A DNA stretch of 64,000 nt from a virus: the IMG/VR virus record IMGVR_UViG_3300024257_000005, positions 1 through 64,000 of that record. One strand, written 5' to 3'. Positions 250 through 55,941 of the stretch are shown here, piece by piece. The translations under genes and the position numbers were made by a program. The stretch's first letter is position 1, and the number at the start of each line of letters is the position of its first letter. The notes beneath the pieces were generated by a model. The model was not told the origin of the DNA, made no database searches, and was given only the letters and a program-made list of their open reading frames with translations.

Positions 250-552
250 GTGAAGCTGAAGTTATTAATGGAAAAGGAAATGACGAACAAACAGCATATT
301 GCTGCCGTCAAAAAAGAGAGAGCTGCTGAAGCCAATTGAACAAAGAAATATCAGAAAATTTTTCTAGATATTACTGACGGTGAGGAAGTTTGAAGGGTTC
401 CTGGACTATCAGATGCTGAACAAACGTTTGTTAATTATACTGAAAATATCGTTAACCAAATGCAAAAATATGTCTCGTCATATGACATGCAATGAAACAT
501 CATACCCATTGAAGATAAAAAAGTCATTGAAAGATTAGCCAAAAAGCTATAA
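250..552 (+). CDS. Putative internal head protein, 100 aa, 3 TGA=Trp
   Basis: GTG start, MKLKLLMEKE N-terminus. Open to TAA 550-552 if TGA at 337, 391 and 493 is read through. Fills the gap between neighbouring genes. Confidence 0.7.
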
Positions 553-564
553 AAGGAATAAATA

Positions 565-1440
565 ATGAAACTGAAACAACTGATAACAGAAGCAACAAAC
601 GATCCCTTAAAGCAGATAATGTCTGATTGTAATAATTTTCTATACTATTATAAGAAAGACCACTGGCCAATGATGACAACAATGATGAAAAGAATTGACA
701 CAGATCTGCTTAAAAATAAAAAAGCTATTAATGCCATAGATAAAGATATAATAAAGAAATGGATAGGCTTATTAGACGGTGGTAAAATGGGGCTTTATGA
801 GGTTGGAAAATTTTGTAGATGGTTTAAGAAAAACTATAAGGATAAAATTTCTGAAGGAACTCTCAATGAGGGTGGATATTTATCAGCAAAGACAGTAAAA
901 GGACCGGCATCAAAAGTTAAGAAATATGTAAAAGATTTGATCGATACTGCTAAAAAAGATCACGGTCCTGATGCACATTATACTGGCGATTGAGATTCTG
1001 TTACTGGTATAAATATAATTAATAAAATGTTCAAAACAAAAGATGAAGCATTTGGTTATATTGAAGATAATGCTAACAAATGAGATAATGCTATTGCTGT
1101 TCAATTTGGCAAGAAGGGACAGTGAGCCATTGGTGCATTATTGTCTGAAGGAACTCTCACTGAAAAAGTTCGCCCTGGTGAACATATGGAATTGAATCGA
1201 GCCGATAGAAAGAAAATGAAAACTCGTGGTCATATGTCTGACAAAGAAGTAAAGGGAACATTTACACTAGTAGGTAGACCACAATTTGGAGCCGTTTCGG
1301 TTCGTTCGGATGTAACAAGAAAACTATATAAAAATTTATCAGGTGACATGTTTAATCCTGCACATATAAGGAATTACCTAGACACAGAGCTTGCAGGCAC
1401 AAAATTCGGCAAAAAAGAATTAGGTCGATTTGACTATTAG
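565..1440 (+). CDS. Putative modular internal head protein, 291 aa, 3 TGA=Trp
   Basis: ORFs 565..993 and 1141..1440 are in frame and join through TGA at 991, 1081 and 1123. MKLKQLITE start and repeated SEGTLxE linkers. Confidence 0.7.
850..1159 (+). repeat. 16-bp direct repeat tctgaaggaactctca (850-865 and 1144-1159) encoding SEGTL linkers
   Basis: Exact repeat seen in the sequence. Confidence 0.85.
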
Positions 1441-1451
1441 GAGATAAATAG

Positions 1452-2615
1452 ATGGCAACAACACTAGGATATTTAATAAATACTACAGGGTCTGCTCCAG
1501 CAGTATCTGAATCAACGTCGTTTGGTATTTATGACAACGATGTAACATTTCAGCTTGAAGCACCTCAAACGGCAAAGTGAGTTGCATTCAGACTGGGTGG
1601 AGTTCTTATGCAAGTTGAGCTAACATTTCCAGAAGTATATAATGCTTTTGAAGAAGCCGTCAGTGAGTATTCAACATTGGTTAATAATTCACAGATCAAA
1701 GATTGATTGCTTAACTTCAAAGGATTCACAACTGGATCTGATTTAACTAACACAAATCCACTAGCTTCATATGAGTATCAAAAGAGATATTCAGACAATA
1801 TCATTGGTAGTGAAGTTGGTGTTGGTGGAGTATATGATTGGAAGACCGGTTCAATCGATCTTGTAGCAGATCAACAGTATTATGATGTTCAAGCATTGTG
1901 AGGTTCTGCTTCAGAATCAAATCAAAGACTTGAGCTTAAAGAAATTTGGCACTATCGACAGCCTGCTATTCAAAGAGGAAGAGCATATGGATCCGGACAG
2001 GCAATGATTAATTCAGAATTTGCAGGAATGGGATCTGTTGCCGGAACCGCTGGGACACAATATTTAGTTTATCCACTATATTCAGATATTTTAAGAGCAC
2101 AGGCAGTAGAGCTGTCTGATATGATCCGTAAGTCAGGATATTCTCATGAAGTTATCAATAATGTATTACGATTGACACCCACTCCTACTGAAGCAATAAA
2201 ACTTTTCTTTAGATATCGAATAAACTTTGATCCATTTACTGATGATGATAGATCGTCGCAAACAGACAGTGTTATTTCTAGTCCTGCTGACATTCCATAT
2301 TCATTCTTACCGTATACATCAATCAACTCTCCTGGAAAACAATGAATTAGAAAATATACACTAGCAATTTGTAAGGAAATGCTTGCAAGGAACAGATCAA
2401 AATTTACCTCTATTAATATTCCTGAAAATGAGGTGACTCTCGATGGCGATGCATTGCTAAGTGAAGGTCAGGCAGAGAAAGAAGCACTGATTGAGCAATT
2501 TAAAGAATTCTTAGAAGGTGTGAGCAATGAAAAATTAATGGAATCTGAAGCATTACTTCAGGAACATATGGAAAATCAATTTAAGCACATACCAATGCTT
2601 CCAAGAATAGGATAA
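1452..2615 (+). CDS. Neck/head-completion protein (T4 gp13-like), 387 aa, 4 TGA=Trp
   Basis: One frame with TGA at 1578, 1704, 1899 and 2343. Readthrough gives AK[W]VAFRLG and KQ[W]IRKYTLAICKEML...RSKF, the gp13-type C-terminal motif. Confidence 0.8.
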
Positions 2616-2619
2616 CAAT

Positions 2620-3123
2620 ATGAAATTAAGAGATCTACTATTAGAGGTCAAAGTGCCTTATTTGAAAACCGAAAAACAGGCTCGAGAATTTATCAAAAGA
2701 TTGAAACCAAATGATAAAGTTAGCGATGATGTTACTGCCATGGAGACTGGCAAGGTGTTTATGAAAAAGGGCGATAGCAAAAAGGATTTGAAAGATGCCA
2801 TTGTTAAAGAATTCAAAGGAAAAGCATCGAACGAAAATGATATGAAGAAGTTCTATAAAATTAAAATAGAACCTTTTGATAAAAACATGTCGGCAAGTGA
2901 GAAGAAATCATATGAGAAAGCAGAAGCTGATTTATATGCCAAAGTGCCTTTAGAGATTGAGCGGAAAGATGGAAAACCTTTCACAAAGAACGATCAAAAA
3001 GTTTTAGAAGACTATGGTAAATGGTGGACTAAAGAATTGGCTCACTTTGGATTTAGAGGATGGGAATTCTTTGGATCATTCAAGAATAATAAAGTGGCAC
3101 ATGGATCACCAATCTTCTATTAG
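2620..3123 (+). CDS. Putative internal head protein
   Basis: MKLRDLLLE N-terminus like 250 and 565. Lys-rich and located in the head/neck block. Confidence 0.5.
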   Translation: MKLRDLLLEVKVPYLKTEKQAREFIKRLKPNDKVSDDVTAMETGKVFMKKGDSKKDLKDAIVKEFKGKASNENDMKKFYKIKIEPFDKNMSASEKKSYEKAEADLYAKVPLEIERKDGKPFTKNDQKVLEDYGKWWTKELAHFGFRGWEFFGSFKNNKVAHGSPIFY

Positions 3124-3132
3124 GAGTAATTA

Positions 3133-3600
3133 ATGACAATATATTTTTCAGATAAAGAAAAAGCATTTTTCAATTCAATCAATGAAGAACTTATAGAAGA
3201 TGTTGTTAAGCAGTTCATCGTTGTGTACAAAATTAGTGCAGCGGCTACAAGCACTGGTATCTATGGTTCGAGCTCAAATAAAACATTTGAACCAGGGATA
3301 AAGATATGATCATTGATTACTATTCTAGATCCAGAAGTAACTGTTGAGCCGGCTGCAGGAATCAAACAGAAAAGGCGTCTTGAAGTCACGATTCAAAAGA
3401 AACACCTACTAGATAATAGCTTTTATTTTGACGAAGGTGATTACTTACATTGGGATAGTCAGTATTTTGAAATACAAACAATAGTAAAACCTCAGTTTAT
3501 CCAAGGACAGCCTGATCACAATTGGCATGTCAAGCTTACTGCAGAATCTGCTGGTGTTTCAGAAATAACAATTGAAGATAGGGATAAATACGATGCCTAG
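3133..3600 (+). CDS. Neck/head-closure protein (T4 gp14-like), 155 aa, 1 TGA=Trp
   Basis: AGGAG RBS and ATG 3133, TGA at 3307. Motifs TGIYGSSSNKTF and EGDYLHWDSQYFEI. Lies after the gp13-like gene. Confidence 0.65.
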
Positions 3601-4312
3601 ACAAGAGCAACAAAAGATATTAAATAGTGATCTACCTATTATCCAACAACAATTAGAATCTGTTGATGTGGCACTGTTGAATCATTTCAATGAGACACTT
3701 CAGCTATTTGCTGTTGAAAATAACCGAAAGGTCAGTCTTGTAACAACCATAGCACAGGCCGAACGGTGATTTCAAAAGAAACGCCAAAGAGAAAAGCGAG
3801 ACGATAAGACTGAAACTATCTATCCTGTAGCCTCATTAAGACGAGGATCAATTACTCCCAATAATGACATGTTTGTTTATAACAAAAATCAGAGTACTAT
3901 GATACCTGTTTCAAAAAGATTATCAGCTGAAAATAGCTATAAAGATAAGCCTGCTGGAACTGAAATCTATGAAGTTAAGCTTGTCTCACCTCCTGTTGCA
4001 GTTGATATCGATTATGAATTTACACTTCAAACAAAATATATGGAAACTAGTAACTCAATCATTGAGCAGATTATTGTCTATCATGGTAAGCAAGACATAG
4101 TCACTAAGGACGGTTTTACATTGCGAATGAATATTGATAGCTTTTCAGACAATTCAAACCTTGATGAAATTGCCACAGACAATATGCTATTTGAACATGT
4201 AGCATCATTCACTATTTCTTGCCTGTTATCTCTAAATATCAAGAGCAACATTGTAAATGTGAAAAAAGTTCGTACTCCAGCTAAATTTTCCTTCAGTGAA
4301 AAATTCGTATAA
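3593..4312 (+). CDS. Tail terminator/sheath stabiliser (T4 gp15-like), 239 aa, 1 TGA=Trp
   Basis: TGA at 3767 gives AER[W]F. PVAVDIDYEFTLQTKY motif. Immediately precedes the sheath gene. Confidence 0.65.
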
Positions 4313-6716: not shown

Positions 6717-7229
6717 ATGGCAAACGAAGACTTATTAAACCCAGGAAAATGGTCTGATAATCTGCAGCCAATGAGACAAGATAACTGGTTCTTAGAGTTT
6801 CCAGATGTAAATGGAAATCAAATTCCTGCTTATACATGTATGAGCGCTGGAAGACCAAAATTGTCAAATGAAGAAGTTGAAATTCCTTTCATGAATAACA
6901 CCGCTTATTTCAAAGGCAAATCAAAATGGGAAACGCTAGACATTGTTCTACGCACACCTATTTCAGAAGCCCTTGCTTTAAGAGTCATGGAATGGATCAT
7001 GCTTCACCACGATGCTGAATCAGGTGTTGACGGTTATAAGAGTGAATATGCAAAAGATATCACTTTGAAACTAACATCGCCTTTAGGAACAACCATTGAA
7101 TCATGGAGATTGCACCAATGTTGGATCACCAATAGTGATTTTGGTAGTTTAGATATGAGTTCGGCTGACGCTGTAGAAATTAGCTTAACACTAAGATTTG
7201 ATTACGCTGTGTTGGAATTATCACAGTAA
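6717..7229 (+). CDS. Tail tube protein (gp19-like)
   Basis: Follows the sheath gene. GKSKWETL, WRLHQCWITNSDFGSLD, ISLTLRFDYA. Confidence 0.9.
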   Translation: MANEDLLNPGKWSDNLQPMRQDNWFLEFPDVNGNQIPAYTCMSAGRPKLSNEEVEIPFMNNTAYFKGKSKWETLDIVLRTPISEALALRVMEWIMLHHDAESGVDGYKSEYAKDITLKLTSPLGTTIESWRLHQCWITNSDFGSLDMSSADAVEISLTLRFDYAVLELSQ

Positions 7230-7284: not shown

Positions 7285-7327
7285 ATTAGAGATATATTTA
7301 TTACTATAACGAAAACTGGAGGTGTTT

Positions 7328-8128
7328 ATGACACAAGAAGTAAAAAATAAGACATTTTTTGTTGATCTTCCGAGTGAAGGAAGAGCATATCCTCAAGAAA
7401 GTCCTTTGTATGAAGGTACTGTTGAGTTACGATATGGAAGTTCTGGGGATGAAAATATCCTATTGAACCAGCATTATATTGTCAGAGGCGAAGTGTTCGA
7501 CAGACTACTTGAGCAGCTATTAGTAAATAAATCTATTGATATTGCTGATCTTTTAGTCGGAGATAAAAATGCCTTAGTAATTGCAACAAGACAAGCCATG
7601 TATGGAAACACGTATCCGATTAAATTGAAATGCCCTAAATGTGGTGAAGAGATAAACGACTCTTTTGATTTAACTCATTTACACAAATTCAAGTTTCCTG
7701 AAGATGAAGATTTCAATCCCAAACAACTGACATATACATCTGAAGCTGGAAATGTTTGAGGATTCAGGCTGCTTACAGAGGCAGATATCAAAGATCTTTC
7801 ACAGATAGCAAGGAAGATGAAAAAATTAAACATTAGTAGAGATGGACAGGTCACTGTTACGGCAAGAGCCGAACGGCAGCTATTGTCTGTTAATGATATA
7901 ACTGATGTTAACAAAACGGTAGAGTTCTTTAGAGGAATCTCTTCAATAGAGTCACAGGAGCTGAGAAATGCTATATTAGATATGACGCCAGACATCGACC
8001 TAAGTGTTGATTTTACATGTGACAACCTCATGTGTGGATATTCTGACTATATTGATATTGAGCTTAACTCAGACTTTTTTTGGCCAAAGGGCAGATCACG
8101 AACAAAACGTTCTAGAGGAAGTGTTTAA
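7328..8128 (+). CDS. Baseplate hub assembly/tail assembly chaperone (T4 gp26-like), 266 aa, 1 TGA=Trp
   Basis: VDLPSEGRAY, LLVGDKNALVIATR, CPKCG. TGA at 7757 joins the two ORFs. C-terminal DFFWP. Confidence 0.75.
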
Positions 8129-8255
8129 TCTAGTATATTATGGTGGCTTTGGATTTTCAGAAGTTTGAAATATGCCAGTTCCTATGAAGAAGTTTTTCAC
8201 ACGAAAACTAATAGAAGCTAAAAAGGCGGAGAAGAAGTCATATGAGGAGAAATAA
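8073..8255 (+). CDS. Frameshift-extension ORF of the tail chaperone (T4 gp51/gpT-like), 1 TGA=Trp
   Basis: The +1 frame is open from the T7 run: TFFGQRADHEQNVLEEVFNLVYYGGFGFSEV[W]NMPVPMKKFF..., TGA at 8166, TAA at 8253. Confidence 0.6.
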
Positions 8256-15808: not shown

Positions 15809-16219
15809 ATGAAACAGTTCCAGTTACTTTGCACATTTTCTACAGAAAAGCTTGTAAATAGAAAAGTAGAAGAAATCAAAAGCAAATTCGAAATTCAGAA
15901 TGATTCAATATTCATTTTACAGAGCACATCAAATAAAGACGACTGGTACATTACATACAATGCATTACTAGCCTGAGACGATAACTACAAAGACTTGGTT
16001 ACCAACACAATCAATATTCACAGGAATAAAGAAACCAACACTCTGTATACAATCAATGCTCTCAATGAGGTGATCAAGAATTGCAACAATGGAGTTCTAG
16101 ACACTAACTATAAAATCGACTGGGATAATTATAGAAACTCTATTTTGTTATATAGAAATGAGATGCTTTTGACAATAAAGACAAAGCTCAATGGAATAAT
16201 AAAATGAGAAAAAATTTAA
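15809..16219 (+). CDS. Phage hypothetical protein, 136 aa, 2 TGA=Trp
   Basis: AGGAG RBS and ATG 15809. QLLCTF...HRNKETNTLYTINALN. TGA at 15974 and 16205, TAA at 16217. Confidence 0.7.
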
Positions 16220-16310: not shown

Positions 16311-17105
16311 ATGGACGTAAAAGCCGTAAAAGAACGTCGTAAGCAATTCGCTGACAAATTCAAAAGAAATACAGACATATGGAAAGCCCCTAAGGGCACT
16401 CATGATGTAAGGGTCGTTCCTTATATTAACAACTCTGCTGACCCATTTGAAGAACTATGGTGGCACTGGAACATTGGCAATCGTGGTTTTCTTTGTTTAA
16501 AGAAAAACAAAGGAGAAGATTGTCCAATCTGTAACATGGCATCTGAAATGTGGAAATCAGAAGAAGATGAGGATAAAGAAATTGCAAAGAAAATGTTTGC
16601 AAATGTAAGATTCTATGCTCCTGTCTTACCAAGAGACGCTGAAGAAGAAGGTGTTAAATGGTGGGGCTTAAGTCAGACTCTCTATGATGCATTGACAAGT
16701 GAAGTATTGCTTGATCAGGTCGGAGATTATACTGACATAGAAGCAGGCCGTGACATTGCTGTCACATTTAAGACAAAAGAAGAAACTGGAAATGATTATG
16801 GTAAAGTATCAGTTGATGTTAAGTTTACCACATCACCACTTTCTGAAGATAAAGAGGTTGTTGCAAAATCACTCAAAGAGCAACCAAGTCTTATTGAAAT
16901 GTACCCCTACAATACTGCTGATGAACTAACTGAAGTATTAAGAAAATGGCTATTCCCAGAAGATGCTGAAGAAGAGGCTGCTTCAAAACCAGCTGCTAAA
17001 TCTGCACCAAAGGAAAAGGTCGAATCGCTTAAGACTGAAAGTGAAGATGATTCAGCCGGTACTGATGAAAGTTTAGAAAACAAATTCAAAAAACTTCTAG
17101 ACTAA
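16311..17105 (+). CDS. Single-stranded DNA-binding protein (gp32-like)
   Basis: VRVVP, HW, C..GEDCPIC, DYTDIEAGRDI, acidic C-terminal tail. Confidence 0.8.
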   Translation: MDVKAVKERRKQFADKFKRNTDIWKAPKGTHDVRVVPYINNSADPFEELWWHWNIGNRGFLCLKKNKGEDCPICNMASEMWKSEEDEDKEIAKKMFANVRFYAPVLPRDAEEEGVKWWGLSQTLYDALTSEVLLDQVGDYTDIEAGRDIAVTFKTKEETGNDYGKVSVDVKFTTSPLSEDKEVVAKSLKEQPSLIEMYPYNTADELTEVLRKWLFPEDAEEEAASKPAAKSAPKEKVESLKTESEDDSAGTDESLENKFKKLLD

Positions 17106-17117
17106 ACACATAATAAT

Positions 17118-17157
17118 ATAGAGACAGTTTTGAGCTAATCATTACTGTCTCTATTTT
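17118..17157 (+). terminator. Stem-loop/terminator after ssb
   Basis: atagagacagt...actgtctctat inverted repeat followed by Ts. Confidence 0.6.
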
Positions 17158-17176
17158 CATTTAGGGAGATTTCGCT

Positions 17177-18475
17177 ATGGACAAAGATGTACGTGATAAA
17201 TTAGTTGATGGAATTTTCTCAACTTTAAATACGAAATTCAAAGATACAAATCAAAAGTCATTCCGACTATCTGATCCTGATTCACCAGAAAATGCTAAAG
17301 AGTTTTGCTCTACTGGGTGTACTCCCCTAGACGTTGCAATATCAAATCGTGTGGGTGGAGGAATACCATACGGAAAGATCACAGAACTTAATGGACTAAA
17401 CTCATCTGGAAAATCATTGTTGCTTGCAACTATTTTGGTTGAAAATCAGAAGAAGGGCGGAATATCAATATTCTTAGATAATGAGTTTGCTGTAGATGGA
17501 ACTTTTTATGAAGCAATTGGCATGAACCTAGATCAACTAGTGTATTCACAAATTGAATATATTGAAGATATGCTTGATGCGATTACTGAAATTACACTCA
17601 AAATAAGAAAAGAAAATCCTACCATACCAATTGCAATTGGATTAGATTCTATTGCCGGAGCAAAAACGAGAAGTGATGCTGAAGGAATGGAAAAGGGTGG
17701 ATATAATACTCATAAAGCAATTATCTTATCTCAGAAGCTACCCATAATTGTAGCACTTTGTGCAAAACATAATATTGCCTTAATAGCTACACAGCAGCTG
17801 AGACAAAAAGTTGGTGGAATGGGATTTGGCGATCCATATGTATCTGCTTCAGGTGGTATGGCATTGGCCTTCTTTGCTTCTGTTAGAATCAGACTTGCAA
17901 CTATTGGAAAAATTAAAGCAGGCGATCTGGTTGTTGGAGTTAAATCTAGAGCCAGGGTAGAGAAAACAAGATTAGGGCCTCCATTTAGGGAAGCCGAGTT
18001 TGAAATCTTTTTTGACTCTGGTATTGATGATGCTAAATCCTGTCTTGAACAGCTAAAATTCTATAAAGTTGTTGAAGGAACCACATGGAAAATCTTCAAA
18101 GAAGATCTACATTTACCAGGGTTTGATCTTGAATGGAGAGATAAAGAAACACATTCAAAAGAGGCTGTTTTATTGATGTCGCCAAAAGGTAAAGCAATAA
18201 CTACAAAACCTGATGTAGGATTCTATCCCAAATTTCAACTTCCCACTTGGAGAAACATGATGAGAGATGAAAATTTCAGACGAGTTGTTGCAGAACAAAT
18301 CACAGACCTCAGCGTCAGAAAATATGCTGGCTATATGGAGAAAGACGACATGACAACATTGGTCACAACTGAAGATGAAAATGCTGAAGTCGTAGAGGAA
18401 GCAAAAGCTACTAAAAAAGAGAAGCTTAAAGCAATCCTAGCCAAACAGGGTTCTAACTCAGAAAATGGTGAATAA
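17177..18475 (+). CDS. recA: RecA/UvsX recombinase
   Basis: STGCTPLD, GGIPYGKITELNGLNSSGKS, LDSIAG, GGMALAFFASVRI, PPFREAEF. Confidence 0.9.
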   Translation: MDKDVRDKLVDGIFSTLNTKFKDTNQKSFRLSDPDSPENAKEFCSTGCTPLDVAISNRVGGGIPYGKITELNGLNSSGKSLLLATILVENQKKGGISIFLDNEFAVDGTFYEAIGMNLDQLVYSQIEYIEDMLDAITEITLKIRKENPTIPIAIGLDSIAGAKTRSDAEGMEKGGYNTHKAIILSQKLPIIVALCAKHNIALIATQQLRQKVGGMGFGDPYVSASGGMALAFFASVRIRLATIGKIKAGDLVVGVKSRARVEKTRLGPPFREAEFEIFFDSGIDDAKSCLEQLKFYKVVEGTTWKIFKEDLHLPGFDLEWRDKETHSKEAVLLMSPKGKAITTKPDVGFYPKFQLPTWRNMMRDENFRRVVAEQITDLSVRKYAGYMEKDDMTTLVTTEDENAEVVEEAKATKKEKLKAILAKQGSNSENGE

Positions 18476-19559
18476 TGTGAAACAATACACCACAGACAAG
18501 CATAAGAGATTATTAGGACTATTTGATAAGATAACAAAGCTTGATCCAGAAAGGGAGATCCATGATAAAATTCTTATTGTGGACTCTCTTAACCTGTTCA
18601 TTAGAAGCTTTTGTGTTGTATCTACATTGAACCCAGATGGAGTTCATGTAGGAGGAATACAGGGATCTCTATTGAGTCTTCAATATGCAATCAAGAAAAT
18701 CCGGCCAACCAAGATCATAATGGTTTGGGATGGACGAGGAGGATCTGATGCAAGAAGAAAAATGTATGATGGATATAAAGCAAATCGTGGCAAAGGCTTA
18801 AAAGGACTCAACCGAACTGTTGAATGGCTAAGTCCTGAAGAGGAAGAAAAAGCAGCAGTCAATCAAATCAGTCGATTTGGTCAGTACACTGAAAGTCTTC
18901 CTGTTGCATCAATATCAATTGATAGAGCTGAAGCCGATGATGTCATTGCATATATTTGCAATCAAATGTTTCCAGATGATAAAAAGGTTATTATGTCCAC
19001 CGATAAGGATTTCTTCCAACTCGTTAGTGACAAGACAACCGTTTACCGCCCCACTACTAAAGAGATAGTTGATCGACAATACTTGCAGGATAAGTTTTCA
19101 ATAGCCCCAAATAATTTTGTATTATATAGAGCTATTGATGGCGATCCTTCTGACAATCTCCCTGGAGTTAAGGGCATAGCAATAAAAACTGTCAATAAAT
19201 TATATCCAGAATTATCAGAAACAACTCAATATGATGTTCAATATATAATTGACAAAGCTAAAGAAAATCTTGACAATACAAAATTTGCCATGATATTTAA
19301 CAATGCTGATATAATAGAAAGAAACCATAAATTGATGCAATTGGCCGAAACAATTCTCCCAGGAGATAAAACTTCGATCGTTGTGGATGTTCTCAATAAT
19401 CAGAAAATGTCACTATTTGATAGACGAAAATTAAATCAGATGATGGCTGAAGATAAGATGTATATTCAGCAAAGAGGAATGAGCGGATGGTACAGTGTGT
19501 ATTCAGATGCTGATTCAAGAGCAAGGGTTTTTAATAGAAAATTAATTGAGAGGAAATAA
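18465..19559 (+). CDS. 5'-3' exonuclease/RNase H (flap endonuclease family)
   Basis: IVDSLN, WDG, YKANR, EADDVI, STDKDFFQL, GDPSDNLPGVKGI. Confidence 0.92.
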   Translation: MVNNVKQYTTDKHKRLLGLFDKITKLDPEREIHDKILIVDSLNLFIRSFCVVSTLNPDGVHVGGIQGSLLSLQYAIKKIRPTKIIMVWDGRGGSDARRKMYDGYKANRGKGLKGLNRTVEWLSPEEEEKAAVNQISRFGQYTESLPVASISIDRAEADDVIAYICNQMFPDDKKVIMSTDKDFFQLVSDKTTVYRPTTKEIVDRQYLQDKFSIAPNNFVLYRAIDGDPSDNLPGVKGIAIKTVNKLYPELSETTQYDVQYIIDKAKENLDNTKFAMIFNNADIIERNHKLMQLAETILPGDKTSIVVDVLNNQKMSLFDRRKLNQMMAEDKMYIQQRGMSGWYSVYSDADSRARVFNRKLIERK

Positions 19560-19560
19560 T

Positions 19561-20973: not shown

Positions 20974-20982
20974 GAGAATAAA

Positions 20983-37556: not shown

Positions 37557-37559
37557 CTG

Positions 37560-37588: not shown

Positions 37589-37607
37589 GTAGCAACAAAG
37601 GAGACTT

Positions 37608-38018
37608 ATGACATATTCAAAATTTTATAGAACAGTTGCCATAGAAGTGCAAGGTGTTCTTGTAGACCTCAGAGGAAATGTAAATCCTTATACAGAGGAA
37701 GCATTAAATCTGCTGGTAGAGAATGACTTTCATGTCATTTTATGGACCGATAAGGGCGGCATTGATATTCGAGAGCATTTGAATATCAACAAACATAAAA
37801 ATATCAACATAGCCCATAAACCAGATACACCGGCAAAAGACGTATATCATGTCATCGATTATAGGTACGATTATGGATCTCAATATAAGCTGTGGTCCGT
37901 CATTCAGTTTCTATCAATTGAAAAATCAGATGGTTATAAAATTGTTGAATGTATAAAGGATTATATTACCATTGTAAAGGGAATAGAGGTTCGTCTTGGA
38001 AAAGCTAAAAAAAGCTAA
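37608..38018 (+). CDS. Degenerate HAD-fold protein
   Basis: VAIEVQGVL (DxDG-like), VILWT. Confidence 0.4.
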   Translation: MTYSKFYRTVAIEVQGVLVDLRGNVNPYTEEALNLLVENDFHVILWTDKGGIDIREHLNINKHKNINIAHKPDTPAKDVYHVIDYRYDYGSQYKLWSVIQFLSIEKSDGYKIVECIKDYITIVKGIEVRLGKAKKS

Positions 38019-38427
38019 AGTAGGAATTGTTGGTTCTCGTGAGTGGCAATCATATCGCGACATCAAGGATTTTGTATTCTTCCTCAAAAAAGAATATGGA
38101 GATGGTCTAACAATTGTTTCAGGTGGACAGCCGCTTGGAGCAGATGGCATGGCAAAGAAAGCTGCACTGGAATTAGAAGTTAACTATGTGGAATTTCCAC
38201 CTCAGCATTTTGAGTATAATCAATATTGCCAGAACAACGGTGTCCCAAAATATATGTACAACAAACCTTATCATGTGAGATATTTCTTCATGAGGAATAG
38301 TCAAATTGCAGAATATTCTGATTTTGTGGTTGGTTTTATTCCCAAAGGTTTCCCATCAAAGGGCACTCGTGATACACTGAGAAAAGCTGAAAAGCTTGGC
38401 AAGAAAATAATCATTCAGGAGAAATAA
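37996..38427 (+). CDS. SLOG-family (DprA/YspA-like) protein
   Basis: GIVGSR, IVSGG..GAD, RNSQI, SKGT. Confidence 0.75.
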   Translation: MEKLKKAKVGIVGSREWQSYRDIKDFVFFLKKEYGDGLTIVSGGQPLGADGMAKKAALELEVNYVEFPPQHFEYNQYCQNNGVPKYMYNKPYHVRYFFMRNSQIAEYSDFVVGFIPKGFPSKGTRDTLRKAEKLGKKIIIQEK

Positions 38428-38807
38428 TGGCAAATATTGTAAATGAGTTTGAAAGAGAAATAGCTCGTTCTGAAGAAAATAAAACAGATATAGCTAAACG
38501 AATGCAAAGAATAGCAAATATTTCTAACCGAATTCAGATGGAACAGTTTAGACAGCAAGAGCTTGAGCTACAAGCAGAGCAACTAGCAACAAAATTCACT
38601 GGTAAGACTCCAGATCGACATAAAGAAGCCGTCAAAATTCCCACACGCATTATAGATCGATTTGCATGGTACCCAGTTACGATTGGAAATAAGATGAAAT
38701 TCCTAGTCAAATGTAAAATACTTCAGGAATTTGGTCGATGGGAATCAGATGGTGTTCTTGATCCACCACCACATTGGCGTAATAAAGAATTCATTGAAAC
38801 GAGTTAA
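38427..38807 (+). CDS. Hypothetical protein
   Basis: Coupled TAATG start. Confidence 0.55.
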   Translation: MANIVNEFEREIARSEENKTDIAKRMQRIANISNRIQMEQFRQQELELQAEQLATKFTGKTPDRHKEAVKIPTRIIDRFAWYPVTIGNKMKFLVKCKILQEFGRWESDGVLDPPPHWRNKEFIETS

Positions 38808-38811
38808 ACGG

Positions 38812-38840
38812 TTTCATCTAACGCCATTTTGGGTTATATT
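38812..38840 (+). promoter_or_regulatory. Sigma70-like promoter (TTTCAT-N17-TATATT)
   Basis: Intergenic, upstream of ligA. Confidence 0.55.
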
Positions 38841-38864
38841 GCAGTAACAACCAAAGGAGTACAC

Positions 38865-40799
38865 ATGAATTCAGTTTTCGAAAAATTAATCAAGGCATCA
38901 GAAGCTTATTACAATGGTCATCCTATCATGGATGATTCTGAGTTTGATGCTCTTGTAGACATGGTAACAGCCAGTCATCCAAACCATCCCATTCTAAAAA
39001 CAATTGGTGCACCAACCAGGGACGATTCACCTTGGACAAAAAGGTCGCATCAAATTGCCATGGGATCGCTTTCAAAGATCGTTGATGACAACGATTTGGC
39101 AAAATTCATGGACAAACATTATACTGAAAATTTCCGGAAGGAATATGTCTTATCAGAAAAACTTGATGGAATCTCAATTAACTGTGAATATTCAAACGGA
39201 GTTCTTATCCGGGCGATCACTAGAGGTAGTGGAGTTGAGGGTGAAGATATTAAGAGAAACGTTTTGAACATGAATGGTTGCAACCGGGGAATAAGCATCG
39301 ATCGAGATACTTCAGTAAGAGGTGAGATTATTATGCTTGAGGGTGACTTTAAAATTCTCAATCAGATTCTTGTAGCTCTAGGTGAAGAGCCATACAAAAA
39401 TATGAGAAACTGTGTATCTGGAATTGCTAGAAGATTTGATGGAAAATACTCTGAATATCTCACAATCAGATATTACGATACCACAATTGGAGATTTAGAT
39501 AAGGCTGAGAAATTCTGGTGGTTAAAGAATCACGGATTTGATACAGCTGAATTCTATATTGTCAAAACAATGAACGAAATCCAAGCAATTTACCAATCAT
39601 ATGTTGAATCAAAAAGAGAAGGAATTGATTATGAAATTGATGGATTGGTTCTGGAAATATCAGACCGCGATATTAGAAATCGTATGGGATATAAGGATCA
39701 AAAACCTAAGTTTGCCGTGGCTTACAAATTCCCCAGCTTGGCAGCAACAACTACTCTTTTAGATATTGAGTGGAATGTCGGAACTGGTGGTCATATCACT
39801 CCAGTGGCAATTCTCGAACCTGTTCAAATTGGTGGTATTACAATTCGCAGGTCAACATTGCATAATCAGGCAAATGTCAAGGCATTAAATCTTGGATTAA
39901 ATGACACAGTATTGGTTAGCCGAAGGAATGATGTTATTCCTTATGTTGAGAAAGTAATCTACTCGGATAACAATCTTCATTTTAACATTCCTGAATGCTG
40001 CCCTGAATGTAGCGAACCTGCTATTATTGATGGTGCATATCTTGTTTGTGAAAATCCATTATGCAAGGGAAACTTATTAGGATCCTTGATGAAATGGATC
40101 AAAAAGTCTGGAATGGATTCTCTAGGTATGGGTGAGAAGGTTATTGAAAGGGCTTTTGATGCAGAACTAATCACATTCCCAGCCGAACTATACACAATGA
40201 GCACCAATAAGTTCTTACAACTTGAAGGAGTTCAGAACAAATCGGCAACTAAGATGATGAGCATTATTCAATCTCATAGATCATTATCTCTGGCTGATTT
40301 TATTGGTGGATTGAACCTTGGATCATTTGGATCCTCACTGGCTCAAAGATTAGTAGATGCTGGATATGATACTCTTGAAAAAATTCAAGCTCTTACAATT
40401 CCCCAAATGGTTCATGTTGAAGGAATGGGATATAAGAGATCAGGAAATTTCATTGAGAGATTATTTGCAAAAACAAACCAGATCAATAGGCTTCTTGAGC
40501 ATGTCACCATTGAAGAAGAAAAACCTGCTTTAGAAGCAACCGGTGATATATTTAATAACAATAGCTTTTGCTTCACAGGTGCAATCCAAAAGGAAACACC
40601 TGAAGGAAAGAGATTTAATAGGAAGATGATGGAAGCATTGGTTTTTGAAAATGGTGGAAGCACATCATCAGTAAAGAAGGGCCTCACCTATTTGGTACAG
40701 GCTGATCCAGATTCACAATCATCAAAAACAAAGAAGGCAATCTCCTTAGGTGTAGAAATATTAGCCGAATCAGATTTCTTCAAAATGCTGGGAGAATAA
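38865..40799 (+). CDS. ligA: NAD-dependent DNA ligase
   Basis: YYNG.P.MDDSEFD, EKLDG, TRG.G..GED, DGLV, AYKF, Zn finger, HhH, BRCT. Confidence 0.95.
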   Translation: MNSVFEKLIKASEAYYNGHPIMDDSEFDALVDMVTASHPNHPILKTIGAPTRDDSPWTKRSHQIAMGSLSKIVDDNDLAKFMDKHYTENFRKEYVLSEKLDGISINCEYSNGVLIRAITRGSGVEGEDIKRNVLNMNGCNRGISIDRDTSVRGEIIMLEGDFKILNQILVALGEEPYKNMRNCVSGIARRFDGKYSEYLTIRYYDTTIGDLDKAEKFWWLKNHGFDTAEFYIVKTMNEIQAIYQSYVESKREGIDYEIDGLVLEISDRDIRNRMGYKDQKPKFAVAYKFPSLAATTTLLDIEWNVGTGGHITPVAILEPVQIGGITIRRSTLHNQANVKALNLGLNDTVLVSRRNDVIPYVEKVIYSDNNLHFNIPECCPECSEPAIIDGAYLVCENPLCKGNLLGSLMKWIKKSGMDSLGMGEKVIERAFDAELITFPAELYTMSTNKFLQLEGVQNKSATKMMSIIQSHRSLSLADFIGGLNLGSFGSSLAQRLVDAGYDTLEKIQALTIPQMVHVEGMGYKRSGNFIERLFAKTNQINRLLEHVTIEEEKPALEATGDIFNNNSFCFTGAIQKETPEGKRFNRKMMEALVFENGGSTSSVKKGLTYLVQADPDSQSSKTKKAISLGVEILAESDFFKMLGE

Positions 40800-40802
40800 A
40801 TA

Positions 40803-41021
40803 ATGAATGTATTTTATGGCATTTGTAGCATAATAATTATATTGTTACTTGCCGCAATGACTGGATTAGCAGCCATGGGAGCAATTGCAGGAACTGTATT
40901 ATTTTATGGTAGCATATTGGCTTTGGCACTAGGATTTTATATTTGGACATCCATTGTAGAATCATCTCGTTTATTATGGTCAATGCTAAGTGATAAGTTT
41001 CTTACAATCTGGCCAAGATAA
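40803..41021 (+). CDS. Small membrane protein
   Basis: Two hydrophobic segments. Confidence 0.5.
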   Translation: MNVFYGICSIIIILLLAAMTGLAAMGAIAGTVLFYGSILALALGFYIWTSIVESSRLLWSMLSDKFLTIWPR

Positions 41022-41761: not shown

Positions 41762-43108
41762 ATGACTGACGTAGCAAAAAAGACTGAAACAAAAAAGAAA
41801 AAATTACTAGTTCTATCAGACGACATTCGTGTCCCATCAGGTGTGGGCACAATGACAAGACGAATCGTCTTAGACTTAAAGAAAGACTTTGATATAATCC
41901 AGCTTGGTGGAGCAATAGATCATCCGAATCCTCAACCTGTATTAGTAGATGGAATAAAAGTAATCCCAGTAAAAGGGTATGGCGATTCTCATATCGTTAG
42001 AAATTTAATCACAGTGGAACAACCAGACTATATGTTGATCTTTACAGATCCAAGGTACTGAATTTGGTTATGGCAGATCGAAGATGAAATCAGATCTATG
42101 GTTCCCTTAATGTATTATCATCTATGGGATGACTATCCTGCACCACAATATAATAGAGATTTTTATCTATCGAATGACTGGATGGGTTGTATCAGTAAAA
42201 TTTCAAAAGCAATGGTAGAGGAAGTGGCACCAGAATTTAAAGAGAATCCATGGCGCATAGACTATATTCCTCATGGCACTCCTCACGATGAATTTAAACA
42301 GGTTGACAAATCGTCTGTTGAATATCAGAAGTTCATACGTGAATACTACAAGGGTGAATATGAAAAGTATGATTTTATAATTTTTTATAACAATCGTAAT
42401 GTAAGAAGAAAAATGATGGGTGATGTTATGAATGCCTATGATGAATTCCTCAGTACACTACCACAGGAAAAGCAAGACAAATGTTTGCTATTAATGCACA
42501 CTCATGTTTCCGACGACAATGGAACAAATCTTGCAGCACTGAAAAACGACTTATATCCAAACCACAATATTCTATTTAGTGAAGCTAAAGTTCATACAAA
42601 CATTTTGAATTTCATCTATAACTCAGTAGATGTCACGATCAATCTTGCCTCAAATGAAGGTTATGGAATGGCAACGGCTGAATCACTTATGGCCGGCACT
42701 CCAATCATTGCCACAATTACAGGTGGAATGCAAGATCAATTAGGCATTCCCTTTGAGAATGATTTTATGTCAGTTGATGAATGGAAAGTATTGCAAGAGA
42801 ATGGTGAGTCATTTTTGACCTCACATCATGCTGTTGGTATTATTCCAAAAACTAGAAGCCTCCAGGGATCACCTCCAACTCCATATATCTATGATGATAG
42901 AATTAGTTGGATTGATGCTGCGCATGCTATTGAATATTGGTACAACAAGACACCAGAAGAGCGTGTTAAAGCAGGCGAATCAGGACGTCAATATTTAATC
43001 GAAAATGGTCACACAGTAACAGAAATGAACAAGCGTTTTAGGGCAGCAATTAAAGACATTGATGAAAATTGGGAACCCATTAAACGTGTAAATGTAATCG
43101 AGTGCTAA
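41762..43108 (+). CDS. GT-B (GT4-like) glycosyltransferase, 448 aa, 1 TGA=Trp
   Basis: SDD...SGVG, FTDPRY[W]IWLW through TGA 42059, NNRNVRRK, NEGYGM..AES...GTPII. Confidence 0.88.
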
Positions 43109-43109: not shown

Positions 43110-43625
43110 ATGGTTAAGGCAAAAACAATAAGAAGCAGAACGGATAAGGGTAGAAAAGCAAGAGCCAAGAAGATCAAGACGCTATTGGTCACGGTTCAGA
43201 AGTTTAAAGCGTTCAATGGATATCGCATGGTGTTTATGTACAATGCTAACTCGCAAGAGGGAACTGGAAAATATAGGGTTGAATTTAGATCTTCTCCTGC
43301 CGAACCTATCAATGTTGACAATTGGCTAAAATTTGCATCAGGCGATATACCTGTATTTGCAAATTGTTCATGTCCAGATTTCAAATATAGATGAGAAACG
43401 GTTCTTCATAAGAAGGGCATGGCAAGAATAAAAACCAGTAATGGCGATATGCCGGATGTAACTAATCCGACATATAGAGCATCATATTGTAAACATATAA
43501 TTGCATGTTTTGATCAAATGCAAGCATACATCAGAAGAAGAAACTTTGATGACATTGGTGAGAGATCCAGACTCAACAAGCATCCAGATCTTGAAAAGAA
43601 AGTATTCGATAATGACGGAAAATAA
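43110..43625 (+). CDS. SWIM zinc-finger protein, 171 aa, 1 TGA=Trp
   Basis: CSCPDFKYR[W]...CKH is intact only if TGA 43392 is read through. Confidence 0.75.
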
Positions 43626-46243: not shown

Positions 46244-46516
46244 ATGGAGATGACAATTGCACCAGAGTTTGAAAATAAGATAACTTGCTATGATGAGACT
46301 GAAATAATGTTCTCACTCAATGCAGATGGAGAATTGTTTATTGCTGAGAAATATAGAGCAGATCCATCTCCAGCTTCAAAACGATTTTGAGAATGTATGA
46401 AGGTAAACGGCAAAGAGTGGGCAGACTGTTTTGATGAAAATGAGGCTCTTACAGAAGAAGTGAGTAGCCTTAAGGGCATCATTGAAGGAATGGAAGAAAA
46501 ATATCTAGGAAAATAA
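46244..46516 (+). CDS. Hypothetical protein, 90 aa, 1 TGA=Trp
   Basis: Fills the gap exactly if TGA 46388 is read through (KRF[W]EC). Confidence 0.6.
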
Positions 46517-47691: not shown

Positions 47692-48666
47692 GTGAAAATT
47701 GCATTCCTTTCGGAAACGAAGTTAAATGGAAAATATCCGGAAAACTTTTCAAATTCAAGAACAGACGTTGCTTGGCAAACCGCTTTAGGAGCAACACATT
47801 ATTGCATAACCGATCAAAAATTTCTTGGAAAAGAGATTGATATCGCAATAGTAATTCTACCAAAAAACTCAAATACTCTACAAAAAATCGACTCAACAAT
47901 GTTCGACTATTTCCAACAGAGTGGAACCAAAGTCGGAGTAATGCAAGAGGGTCCAAACTGGTATTTTCAAGACTATTCAGCAGAAGATAATCTGCTATAC
48001 TATAAATATTTATTACAGGCGGATTTTATTTTATGTCATAATGAGGTTGATCATGTATATTTTAAAGGGCTGGTCGGGCATAACAATGTTCATATTATGC
48101 CATCAACAATGAGAGATCCCGGTATCAAATCAATTATGCAGATCGAAAGAAAAGAAGAAGTTATGATTGGCGGAGGATTTACAAGTTGGTACGGAGGATT
48201 TGATTCTTTCGTTGTAGCACAGAGAGCCGAGATAACTCCTGTAATGCCTTCAATGGGTAGGCGTCAGGAAAATGAAGAGCTTTGGGGGATAAATCATCTC
48301 CCTTATATGGACTGGACACAATGGATCATGGAGCTCAATCATTACAAATATGCAATACACCTGATGAGAACTTTTGCAGCTGGTACATTTGCTATGAATT
48401 GTGCAGCACTTGGAGTTCCATGTATTGGATATAAAGATCTTGATACTCAAAGAAATCTACATCCAGCACTGTCTATTGACATTGGAGATCTTGGTAAGGC
48501 TGCAAAGCTATTAAAACAGTTAAAAACTGACAAAGGTTTCTATGATGAATGTAGTAGATTAGCAAAGGTAAATTTTATCAATTCAAACTATAATGAACCA
48601 AATTATAGAAATTATATGACTAGATTATTTTATGAGATATTGGAGGAAGAAGATGGAACAATATAG
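47692..48666 (+). CDS. GT-B-like glycosyltransferase
   Basis: AGTFAMNCAALGVPCIG donor-binding-like motif; located in the GT cluster. Confidence 0.6.
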   Translation: MKIAFLSETKLNGKYPENFSNSRTDVAWQTALGATHYCITDQKFLGKEIDIAIVILPKNSNTLQKIDSTMFDYFQQSGTKVGVMQEGPNWYFQDYSAEDNLLYYKYLLQADFILCHNEVDHVYFKGLVGHNNVHIMPSTMRDPGIKSIMQIERKEEVMIGGGFTSWYGGFDSFVVAQRAEITPVMPSMGRRQENEELWGINHLPYMDWTQWIMELNHYKYAIHLMRTFAAGTFAMNCAALGVPCIGYKDLDTQRNLHPALSIDIGDLGKAAKLLKQLKTDKGFYDECSRLAKVNFINSNYNEPNYRNYMTRLFYEILEEEDGTI

Positions 48667-48886
48667 AGAAACAACATTTAATTCATGAATCGAATATAAA
48701 TTATTTATGGAATCAATATCTGTAGGAACTATTGAAAGCGAACAATTATACCATGGACCATTCCCAGATAAAAAAGGTGTCTATATTGTTCCAGCAACAT
48801 GTAGTGCATATTTTGCTGAATTTGATGGTGAAAAATGGATTGACTCTAGTACAAATAGACCTATAGGATTTTATTATAAAGGATAA
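48653..48886 (+). CDS. Hypothetical protein, 77 aa, 1 TGA=Trp
   Basis: GGAGG RBS and ATG 48653; TGA at 48686 (TFNS[W]IEY); fills the gap. Confidence 0.55.
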
Positions 48887-54618: not shown

Positions 54619-54658
54619 ATCCCTTTATATTTAACAATGAACTTAAACATAAAGGGAT
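54619..54658 (+). promoter_or_regulatory. Hairpin with TATATTTAA in its 5' arm, sequestering the putative RBS of 54664
   Basis: atccctttat/ataaagggat, extendable by tttaa/ttaaa. Confidence 0.6.
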
Positions 54659-54663
54659 AACCG

Positions 54664-55002
54664 ATGGACATGCTAGACAAAACAATTGTTTTAGAAACAT
54701 CCAATTCAAAAAACTCAACAAAAACACATGAGCAACTATTCAAACTAGAACGAAGGTTCATACGTATGATATGTGAAGAGCTTGGGATCAATAAGAAACA
54801 ATTCCGAAAAATGTATAAATCTAAGAAACCACAAGACCAGGGTTTTGCTAATGAGATTAATAAGCAATTCAAGAATCTCAAAGAATCATACATGGCAGAA
54901 GCTCCAAAAGAAATTTCAGCACCAACTCCAGAACCTGAACGTATGACAATTGGCGAAGTAACTACTCAAGGTGGCGACGCTGATGGTATTGGCATAAATT
55001 AG
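54664..55002 (+). CDS. Hypothetical protein
   Basis: ORF. Confidence 0.5.
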   Translation: MDMLDKTIVLETSNSKNSTKTHEQLFKLERRFIRMICEELGINKKQFRKMYKSKKPQDQGFANEINKQFKNLKESYMAEAPKEISAPTPEPERMTIGEVTTQGGDADGIGIN

Positions 55003-55005
55003 GCC

Positions 55006-55034
55006 TTTACTTTATACGCTCCAAGGGTTATATT
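55006..55034 (+). promoter_or_regulatory. Sigma70-like promoter (TTTACT-N17-TATATT)
   Basis: Shares gggttatattg with 29682 and 38812. Confidence 0.55.
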
Positions 55035-55060
55035 GAAAGGTCAACAAATAAGGAGTAGAC

Positions 55061-55564
55061 ATGCCCAAACGAAAAATCAAAAAACCAGCAAAAATTCACC
55101 AACGCAAGGTCTATAAGGCCAGCGGTCCAACACACTTTGGAGCCTTTAGTGATCAAGGCGTCTCTCAGGAGGTGCTATGCTCTAAGTGTAATCGAGAATA
55201 TCTGAAAATAGATGTTGGAGCAACTGGAGGAATTTGCTGGAAGTGTACACAGGTTTTATGTGGACCACCGGCTGGAATGAAAACTGGAGATTCAAAACCT
55301 ACGGTACAGAGGGTTCAGGGATGGCGTTGGATGAAAGAGTGGGTTGATCCGGATGGTACGGTTTGGCACAAAGGTGTTGAACAACCCAAGCTCAAGGGAA
55401 AAAGAGAACCAACAGATCCAGAACCAATTCGACAGGCAAGGATTGAAAAGAAAAAGATTGCAGCACAAAAGAAAGAAATAAAACTTCTCAAACATGCACA
55501 AAAGCAAAAAGAGGCACGAATTGCTGAGGCAAAGAAAAGAGAAGAATTAAAAAATAAAGGATAA
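55061..55564 (+). CDS. Basic Zn-finger hypothetical protein
   Basis: CSKC...CWKC, GWRWMKEWVDPDG. Confidence 0.55.
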   Translation: MPKRKIKKPAKIHQRKVYKASGPTHFGAFSDQGVSQEVLCSKCNREYLKIDVGATGGICWKCTQVLCGPPAGMKTGDSKPTVQRVQGWRWMKEWVDPDGTVWHKGVEQPKLKGKREPTDPEPIRQARIEKKKIAAQKKEIKLLKHAQKQKEARIAEAKKREELKNKG

Positions 55565-55569
55565 AGATT

Positions 55570-55941
55570 ATGGGAACCGAAAAATCAGATAAAAAGCAGT
55601 GAAGCGATCTTGAAATTGTAGAAATGCTCGAAGAAAAATTCCCAGGAATGACTGGCGAATTTAAAGATATTCTTAAAGAGCAGTATCTTACATTTTGTCT
55701 AAAGCAATGGGATTACGGTCCCTCAAATATTGCTGTCGGAACCAACCTTGAAACACCTGAAGAGGTGAAGATGTCATGGATGGGATTGTGGTTCAGGATT
55801 AATGATAAGGTTCAGCGGCTCAAGAATATTCTATTCAACGATAAGACGGCAGCAAATGAACCAATGATTGATGCATTTATGGATATGTCAGTCTATGGAA
55901 TAATAGCACAAATTGTCGATAGGGGCAAGTGGGGTAAATAG
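55570..55941 (+). CDS. Nucleotide-modification-associated domain 1 (DUF1599-like) protein; TGA at 55600 if the upstream ATG is used
   Basis: KQWDYGPSNI, RINDKVQRL, E...DAFMD...YGII; alternative ATG at 55624. Confidence 0.7.

Follow-up and report, generated by a model that had tools for sequence, protein, structure and literature searches.

TGA-to-tryptophan recoding and its module bias in an uncultured marine myovirus with T4-type virion genes

Introduction

Agate, Jade and Sapphire are clades of gut phages that read the stop codon TGA as tryptophan, as in code 4 (Borges et al., bioRxiv 10.1101/2021.08.26.457843). In the TGA-recoded gut phages, TGA was concentrated in structural and lysis genes and was absent from replication genes, and TGA stops were already rare in close relatives with the standard code (Borges et al.). 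A suppressor tRNA was detectable in only 35% of the TGA-recoded genomes, release factor 1 (RF1) and TrpRS in only two genomes, and it was proposed that the recoding delays the translation of lytic genes (Borges et al.). Recoding of TAG to Gln (code 15) is known from crAss-like, Lak and phAss-1 phages, and TAG recoding has been validated by proteomics (PMC9523058, PMC10607447). Here, we describe in-frame TGA codons in the first 64 kb (64,000 nucleotides, hereafter the window) of the single linear 105,677-bp IMG/VR record IMGVR_UViG_3300024257_000005, which derives from an uncultured marine myovirus with T4-type virion genes and covers about half of its genome.

Like the TGA-recoded gut phages, this virus uses TGA for Trp with a bias towards virion and lysis genes, has none in its replication genes, uses it rarely or not at all as a stop, and combines a large genome with a tRNA array. 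All testable sequence-level features of the class described by Borges et al. were found, except a detectable suppressor tRNA, a trait that is too infrequent among the published genomes to define the class strictly. A preliminary description of the window, made from the letters alone, had likened the pattern to published stop-codon recoding biased to late genes, and the likeness to the gut phages bears this out. Unlike these, the present phage is marine and its T4-type virion module is related to that of the cyanophage-like Mel-JY01. Furthermore, its recoding is sparse (~11% of Trp codons, density gain 2.5%), its abundant virion proteins avoid TGA, and neither a UCA tRNA nor RF1 or TrpRS was found in the ~127 kb sampled. 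With the TAG-to-Gln phages, whose host is believed to use the standard code, it shares the reassignment of a stop in late genes; codon and amino acid differ, and those phages carry a recognisable tRNA-Sup(CUA) and in some cases RF2.

The nearest cultured relative is Microcystis phage Mel-JY01 (PP395634.1), with a sheath that is ~39-42% identical over the full length. Both phages have homologous neck, tube, hub, baseplate, terminase, portal, protease and capsid genes. Unlike the present phage, Mel-JY01 uses the standard code, has TGG at the homologous Trp positions, and carries PolB and PolI in place of the DnaE-type polymerase found here. The proposal of a T4-like jumbo lineage as a new instance of recoding can be kept as far as the lineage is concerned, whereas the term jumbo is uncertain, since the estimated completeness of ~50% (CheckV) implies a genome of only ~210 kb. 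A literature search on marine or T4-like TGA recoding returned no specific report, which is not proof that none exists.

With this phage, the stop-codon recoding described for late, tail and lysis genes of gut phages is now also seen in seawater, in an abundant myovirus whose virion genes are T4-type. Gene calling under table 11 breaks the tail, baseplate, terminase, protease and endolysin genes of such phages into fragments. One published screen used a 10% density gain as cut-off (PMC13037316). The contig-wide gain with code 4 was only 2.5% and thus lies below this value; therefore, sparse recoding is likely under-counted in marine viromes.

Results and discussion

Decoding of the in-frame TGA codons

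All 27 positions given as in-frame TGAs in the preliminary description proved to be TGA triplets in the frame of + strand open reading frames (ORFs) that are open under table 4 (Table 1), and the stated number of 19 positions up to 12,326 was confirmed. When codon usage was scored over 30 codons on both sides, frame 0 gave the best score at 24 of the 27 sites. Among the remaining three, 493 and 55600 are plausible. The former has only 18 codons left downstream; the latter has only ~10 codons upstream, yet the alignment with Mel-JY01 starts at residue 4 and covers the site. Site 16205 lies 3 codons before a TAA and is ambiguous, being either the true stop or a C-terminal Trp. A high-scoring segment pair (HSP) with a homologue or a hidden Markov model (HMM) match crosses 14 sites (1578, 1704, 1899, 2343, 3307, 3767, 6103, 7757, 8166, 12201, 15974, 42059, 43392 and 55600), and individual HMM or HSP matches extend over the TGAs of the sheath, gp13-like, gp15-like, hub and glycosyltransferase genes. 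The genes with the six sites in 250-1440 are ORFans, for which PHROG, Pfam and protein databases gave no match; these sites were assigned by coding potential and gene packing alone. Four more in-frame TGAs of the window (48617, 53751, 57920 and 58019) are located near the 5' ends of ORFs and are probably upstream of the true starts.

The identity of the encoded residue was determined from the homologues. In tblastn alignments with Mel-JY01, the 24 TGA columns comprised W 9, Y 4 and F 1 (aromatic 14/24), compared to W 44, Y 12 and F 11 (aromatic 67/98) in the 98 TGG columns of the same proteins. The profile at TGA columns, which showed no excess of G or C, resembles that at TGG columns, in line with the earlier expectation that homologues would carry Trp there. 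Over all relatives, W was found in 25 of 58 TGA columns. Since the HSPs of the relatives contain no in-frame stops, it can be concluded that the sampled relatives use the standard code. In the gp13-like protein, the relatives showed W/W/W/Y at the first TGA column, N at the second, W/W/W/V at the third and W in all four at the last; at the sheath column of 6103, eight of the 14 homologue HSPs had W and four had F or Y. Four motifs had been quoted as matching Trp residues of the respective families. All four read as stated, and W is present in the homologues for sheath 6103, gp13-like 2343 and glycosyltransferase 42059. In the SWIM protein, 43392 is only spanned by the PHROG match, and the Pfam SWIM match ends two residues before it.

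Further evidence comes from the endolysin, encoded on a contig of the same phage population (L106). Two of its three TGA-encoded Trp residues, W25 and W31, align to W of T7 lysozyme (1LBA) and match the two W of its conserved "WHK..GW..GYHF" stretch. When TGA is counted as Trp, the Trp content of the virion blocks reaches 1.1-1.4%, close to the 1.2-1.7% of the other modules. Under code 4, the coding density of positions 1-16,300 increased from 84.8% to 96.3%, while the replication block stayed at 97.2%; between 96.8 and 105.7 kb, the density rose from 78% to 98% when TGA was read through. This agrees with the earlier statement that reading through the TGAs turns fragments into tightly packed genes. 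Altogether, we regard the recoding of TGA to Trp as real with near certainty, and the module bias described below is real.

In-frame stops might also reflect sequencing errors, gene decay (pseudogenes), another residue such as selenocysteine or Gly (code 25), or RNA editing to TGG. Nothing beyond the bare presence of in-frame stops points in this direction. Contigs of two DNA and two RNA runs were compared over positions 1-20,000 and showed 22 differing positions. None falls on a TGA, the closest being 336 T>G, immediately 5' of the TGA at 337. Every TGA was identical in the independent DNA assemblies of 2018 and 2019 and in the RNA contigs, the latter without an A>G change at any TGA. Since all TGAs are kept in DNA and RNA contigs, they are neither errors nor products of RNA editing. 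Moreover, the genes are interrupted by TGA only, and the aligned columns contain W or other aromatic residues, not C or G. This group of explanations has a negligible probability and is already refuted at the level of sequence analysis.

Distribution of TGA across the modules and stop usage

In the whole contig, ~47 credible sense TGAs stand beside 401 TGG codons, corresponding to ~11% of the Trp codons. The TGA/TGG ratios of virion and replication block (Table 1) differ with a Fisher p of 9e-15. The other NNR codon pairs showed 63-75% A-ending codons in both blocks; therefore, mutation pressure alone is not the cause of the contrast. The stops of 132 genes comprised 103 TAA, 29 TAG and at most 3 TGA, none of which is certain, as each of the three candidates (16205, 87802 and 90346) lies 1-3 codons before a TAA. 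In Mel-JY01, with a similar GC content, TGA ends 51 of 190 ORFs (27%; ORFs of at least 100 amino acids). Thus, the early genes avoid TGA in both roles, and the genome no longer relies on TGA as a stop. The view that the recoding is confined to a subset of genes has to be abandoned: TGA was purged as a stop from every module, and the recoding is genome-wide.

Across the contig ends, the sense TGAs make up a single continuous block, reaching from 96.8-105.7 kb via the head module to 0.25-16.2 kb. Such a contiguous arrangement would be expected from a mosaic history, in which a virion module that evolved in, or came from, a code-4 lineage was joined to a standard-code replication module, producing a partition without function. 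This origin is improbable, because the replication module has also lost its TGA stops (0 of 23 genes compared to the 27% expected from Mel-JY01), sense TGAs are scattered in non-virion genes (glycosyltransferase, SWIM protein, nucleases), and every relative sampled for the virion genes has the standard code, its HSPs being free of in-frame stops.

Within the virion module the distribution is uneven. The abundant virion proteins (capsid 0/11, tube 0/6, sheath 1/6) use TGA for 1 of 23 Trp codons compared to 43 of 98 in the other virion-associated genes (p = 2e-4, for a grouping made post hoc). Several further head genes on the overlapping contigs contained no TGA, and in a Vsr-like nuclease on the upstream contigs the W of the DGxxWH motif is encoded by TGA. 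Accordingly, TGA marks lower-copy tail, baseplate, packaging, maturation, lysis and mobile-nuclease genes, not late genes as such. Of the bias to virion or late genes that had been described, the concentration in virion genes and the absence from replication genes were found again, whereas a general mark of late genes was not, as capsid, tube, sheath and head structural genes almost avoid TGA.

The base following TGA was T in 6% of the cases compared to 21% after TGG (p = 0.01, n = 47), and purines made up 85% compared to 64%. This bias at the +4 position is a weak hint that TGA competes with a release factor.

In a nuclease-like gene at genome positions 69217-69894 (phrog_9019/22215), all three Trp codons are TGA (69622, 69634 and 69733). 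The last 15 nt of this gene are at the same time the first of tRNA-Trp(CCA).

Table 1. Genes and modules of the record and of overlapping contigs, with their TGA and TGG codons. Window and genome positions share one numbering.
Feature	Position	Strand	TGA	TGG	Matches and remarks
ORFan, 100 aa (code 4)	250..552	+	337, 391, 493	0	Frame 0 best around 337 and 391; no homologues
ORFan, 291 aa	565..1440	+	991, 1081, 1123	3	Strong frame-0 signal on both sides; protein homologue search empty
gp13-like neck/head-tail adaptor, 387 aa	1452..2615	+	1578, 1704, 1899, 2343		phrog_211; one HSP, residues 10-387
Virion-block gene, 155 aa	3133..3600	+	3307		HSP crosses; relatives G/L/S
gp15-like tail sheath stabiliser	3572..4312	+	3767		PF16724; W in Mel-JY01
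Tail sheath, 749 aa	4417..6666	+	1 (6103)	5	phrog_23 (7-747) and PF04984 (472-636) span codon 563
Tail tube	6717..7229	+	0	6	phrog_4542
T4-type baseplate hub protein	7322..8128	+	7757		PF12322 and phrog_150 span the site; column L/I/V
Small conserved gene, start uncertain	8004..8255	+	8166		HSPs to three relatives, residues 18-81; Y in all three
Virion-block protein, 815 aa	8519..10966	+	10457	9	Coding signal on both sides; homologues cover only 165-446
Virion-block protein, 452 aa	10968..12326	+	11232, 11547, 12201		W at 12201 in two relatives; coding signal
136-aa gene	15809..16219	+	15974, 16205 (ambiguous)		Mel-JY01 homologue, residues 5-120, gap at the 15974 column
Glycosyltransferase	41762..43108	+	42059		phrog_2170 (17-328) spans codon 100; W in Mel-JY01
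SWIM zinc-finger protein	43110..43625	+	43392		phrog_18980 (82-133) spans codon 95; PF04434 covers 80-93
90-aa gene	46244..46516	+	46388		Tight packing between neighbours, coding signal on both sides
Small gene, true start probably at or after 48632	48593..48886	+	48686		Coding signal; no homologues
Gene of ~185 aa	53706..54314	+	54144		Coding signal; no homologues
DUF1599-like gene	55570..55941	+	55600 (codon 11)		Mel-JY01 HSP, residues 4-123; column M
Amidase_2 endolysin	Overlapping contigs		3	0	
T4-type TerL	Overlapping contigs		4	10	
Portal	Overlapping contigs		0	4	
gp21-type prohead protease	Overlapping contigs		3	1	
Major capsid protein	Overlapping contigs		0	11	
Neck/tail/baseplate block	0.25-12.3 kb				gp13-like, gp15-like, sheath, tube, hub
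Replication and nucleotide-metabolism block, 23 genes	16311..41021	+	0	96	TGA share 0%, TGA stops 0; SSB, UvsX, exonuclease, DnaB, RNR, DnaE-type polymerase, helicase, NAD ligase, others
Auxiliary genes and GroEL	Up to 64.6 kb				
tRNA array, 27 genes	65-75 kb				
RNA-repair module and bona fide tmRNA	Downstream of tRNA array				
Baseplate-wedge and long tail proteins	96.8-105.7 kb				
Virion block, total	96.8-105.7 kb + 0.25-12.3 kb		37	51	TGA share 42%
All other genes			~10 (11 by script; 58019 set aside as upstream of likely start)	256	TGA share ~4%

Search for the decoder

The search for a decoder covered the 105.7-kb contig with its array of 27 tRNAs and ~21 kb upstream, together ~127 kb or about 50-60% of the genome. 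The upstream part was obtained by walking from the window start over the overlapping contigs L019, G001/L022 and L106, which are 99.7-100% identical, and ended 964 nt beyond G001; walking from the 3' end of the record yielded no extension. Aragorn and Rfam agreed on the tRNA set, which contained no UCA anticodon, and a custom scan of the sampled sequence showed no UCA anticodon stem-loop with a T-arm. PF00472, PF03462 and PF00579, used in the search for RF1 and TrpRS, were absent from the contig, and no tRNA was found on the upstream contigs. Accordingly, none of the tRNA-Trp(TCA), TrpRS and RF1 for which the preliminary description had suggested a search occurs in the 105.7-kb contig or the ~21 kb upstream. 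The lack of a UCA tRNA in the array and the scarcity of TGA in the most abundant virion proteins make this phage, with ~40% of the genome still to be sampled, a useful case for asking how UGA is decoded and at what cost.

Some candidates were rejected. At a low threshold with introns allowed, aragorn reported a 'tRNA-SeC(tca)' at 82738-83885 with an intron of 1,076 nt. This prediction is spurious, with a D stem of 3 bp, no TTCRA T-loop and protein genes inside the 'intron'. The custom scan yielded only two orphan T-arms (66235 and 71053), which are parts of tRNA-like elements with AGG and ACG anticodons. The tRNA-like element at genome positions 66183-66255 resembles tRNA-Pro(AGG) and is sub-threshold (Rfam 23.1 bits), and the one at 70993-71073 is odd, with an ACG anticodon loop and a good T-arm. 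Both are missed at default thresholds.

The tRNA-Trp(CCA) at genome positions 69880-69952 showed U8, C9, a D stem of GGUU/AACC with a U12-A23 pair, a normal anticodon stem of 5 bp and C24 paired with G11. The changes A9C and G24A both promote the reading of UGA by E. coli tRNA-Trp (PMC13092985). With C9 and U12-A23, the phage tRNA has the state of the A9C mutant; unlike the Hirsh suppressor (G24A), it has C at position 24, paired with G11, and unlike the Blastocrithidia-type tRNA-Trp(CCA) with an anticodon stem of 4 bp (PMC13092985), its anticodon stem is normal. The nearest phage tRNA-Trp is that of phAss-1 (OQ749652.1 110153-110224), which is 86% identical with compensatory stem changes and has the same U8-C9-GGUU and D stem. 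Judged from these sequences, the likeness points to a tRNA-Trp lineage common to phages of very different habitats.

It is conceivable, if doubtful, that UGA is decoded without any UCA tRNA by this C9-type tRNA-Trp(CCA), as a natural counterpart of the A9C suppressor, which would read UGA near-cognately, perhaps with the RF2 of the host neutralised by some block. The position C9 occurs in only 2 of the 27 phage tRNAs, while A9 was found in all three tRNA-Trp genes recovered from Marinimicrobia and Bacteroidota genomes. The array is without a UCA tRNA. Both the scarcity of TGA in abundant proteins and the rarity of T behind TGA would fit an inefficient decoding in competition with RF2. However, phAss-1 recodes TAG and not TGA in spite of the same C9 and D stem, the states C9 and A24 are common in bacterial tRNA-Trp (PMC13092985), genes with 4-6 TGAs would require a near-complete readthrough, and the unsampled part of the genome could encode another decoder. 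If the C9 route were true, its inefficiency would explain why TGA is avoided in capsid, tube and sheath compared to the 3-6 TGAs tolerated in low-copy tail, packaging and lysis proteins, and the tmRNA of the phage would help to clear ribosomes running off host messages.

Host affinities

The GroEL of the phage (window 62948-64000, gene to 64582; phrog_5725, E = 8e-113) showed the highest similarity among cellular proteins to that of a Candidatus Marinimicrobia metagenome-assembled genome (70% identity), followed by Balneolales, Ignavibacteria, Gemmatimonadota and Bacteroidota. From these sequence affinities, a host of the FCB group (Fibrobacterota-Chlorobiota-Bacteroidota) is hinted at. In five Marinimicrobia/FCB genomes, prfB was above the cut-off in four, with a lower-score match in the fifth, and tRNA-Trp(CCA) was recovered in three. 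The tRNA-Trp genes were found by a pattern search, as blastn of the phage tRNA-Trp gave only short chance matches. Together with the 0 of 96 TGA in early genes, these data indirectly fit a standard-code host.

A host that itself reads UGA as Trp or has no RF2 would make a switch unnecessary, the phage merely following the code of its host. Such a host would account for TGA stops being absent genome-wide and for the lack of a phage-encoded decoder in the ~127 kb sampled. Nonetheless, constant decoding of UGA gives no reason for a TGA share of 0/96 Trp codons in the replication genes compared to 42% in the virion block with NNR pairs alike. In addition, the anticodon of the phage tRNA-Trp is CCA and not UCA, and the FCB genomes related by GroEL have prfB (4/5 above the cut-off) and, in three cases, tRNA-Trp(CCA), although this is an indirect hint. 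A host of this kind is hence rated as very unlikely. In Mollicutes, it is the host that uses code 4, and Trp is encoded mainly by TGA in every gene. The present phage shares with them and their phages the meaning of TGA as Trp, but TGG dominates here, the early genes are without TGA, and a host of this type is at odds with the marine FCB-type affinities.

Timing and the most likely explanation

The explanation that we consider likely is that TGA is reassigned from stop to Trp (code 4) genome-wide and that the decoding of UGA changes during infection by means of a phage decoder. The change itself is probable because TGA is avoided in the early genes both as a sense codon and as a stop, yet stands for Trp in the rest of the genome. 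Being free of TGA, the early genes would be translatable by an unmodified standard-code host. Translation of the TGA-bearing genes would have to wait for a decoder supplied by the phage, in keeping with the proposal of Borges et al. for the gut phages, and the most likely candidate for this decoder would be a tRNA(UCA) in the ~40% of the genome that was not sampled. Since capsid, tube and sheath almost avoid TGA, the decoding of UGA appears to be costly or inefficient.

The preliminary description had gone further and proposed a translational lock that would hold until a suppressor tRNA-Trp(UCA) or an RF2 antagonist appears. A code switch or lock can reasonably be inferred from the avoidance of TGA in both roles in the early genes; as for its release, no component was found in the ~127 kb sampled.

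Several observations weigh against this explanation. The ~127 kb, which include the tRNA array as the expected place of a suppressor, yielded no tRNA(UCA), no hidden or split tRNA, no group I intron and no RF1, RF2 or TrpRS. The late head genes are nearly free of TGA, and 'late gene' is consequently not the rule. Furthermore, 10 of the 27 window sites are without homologue support, and TATATTTAT, a motif enriched between genes, stands before tail genes as well as before the SSB gene and thus gives no timing signal.

The T4 late promoter TATAAATA was not enriched, with 11 copies on the + strand compared to ~14 expected from an estimate based on base composition, and cannot be used to classify late genes. 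The depth of the RNA contigs cannot rank the genes and gives no basis for timing either. The motif TATATTTA(T) is intergenic in 15 of its 18 copies and lies 27-135 nt upstream of many genes, including those for sheath, tube, hub and SSB as well as the tRNA array. It was found at the window positions 4366, 6670, 7293, 16248, 26047, 41533, 44106, 52014 and 54626 and at eight more positions on the contig, and is probably a promoter element of the phage. As a marker of TGA-bearing genes, the intergenic motif was rejected, since it precedes both tail genes and the SSB gene.

Genome context and further observations

The record has a GC content of 36%, and its + strand carries nearly all genes. The phage was present in 20 seawater or marine runs, comprising 14 DNA runs dated 2018-2019 and 6 RNA (metatranscriptome) runs from 2025. 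The T4-type virion set includes gp18 sheath, gp19 tube, gp15 and gp13 neck, gp6/gp53/gp25-type wedge, gp17-type TerL, gp21 protease and gp23-type capsid, based on matches to PF04984/PF17482, phrog_4542, PF16724, phrog_211, PF12322, phrog_43/219, PF03237 and PF03420; the capsid was assigned via an HSP to the 'T4-like' capsid of Mel-JY01. The replication module is not of the T4 type, with a DnaE-type polymerase (phrog_405) in place of PolB gp43.

The start of the contig is an assembly break caused by strain indels and not the end of the genome. The first 40 bases of the window gave no match in viral contigs. At the break at window position 1, one strain carries an additional small gene of ~270 nt and another two small genes on an additional ~1 kb. 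The true start of the first window gene lies 18 nt upstream of position 1, and the small genes near this position share an MKLK... start, which suggests a paralogous family.

A ClpP/S14-like protease is encoded within the replication block (window 24091-24720), where it overlaps the 3' end of the gene for the large RNR subunit; it is distinct from the true gp21-type prohead protease upstream. Between 26392 and 35901 of the window, genes for a nucleotide-sugar epimerase, a HAD/kinase-like and a thymidylate-kinase-like protein and other nucleotide genes surround the DnaE-type polymerase gene and may constitute a DNA-modification pathway.

The RNA-repair genes at genome positions 81.6-89.3 kb (cREC-REC, HAD_SAK_2, PNKP kinase-phosphatase, RlaP and a T4-type RNA ligase) probably counter anticodon nucleases. 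The tmRNA gene adjoins this module (genome 91118-91475; Rfam RF00023, 120.8 bits, full model) and encodes the tag peptide GTNYAIAA, which ends with TAA. A link of this tmRNA to UGA readthrough of host messages is conceivable.

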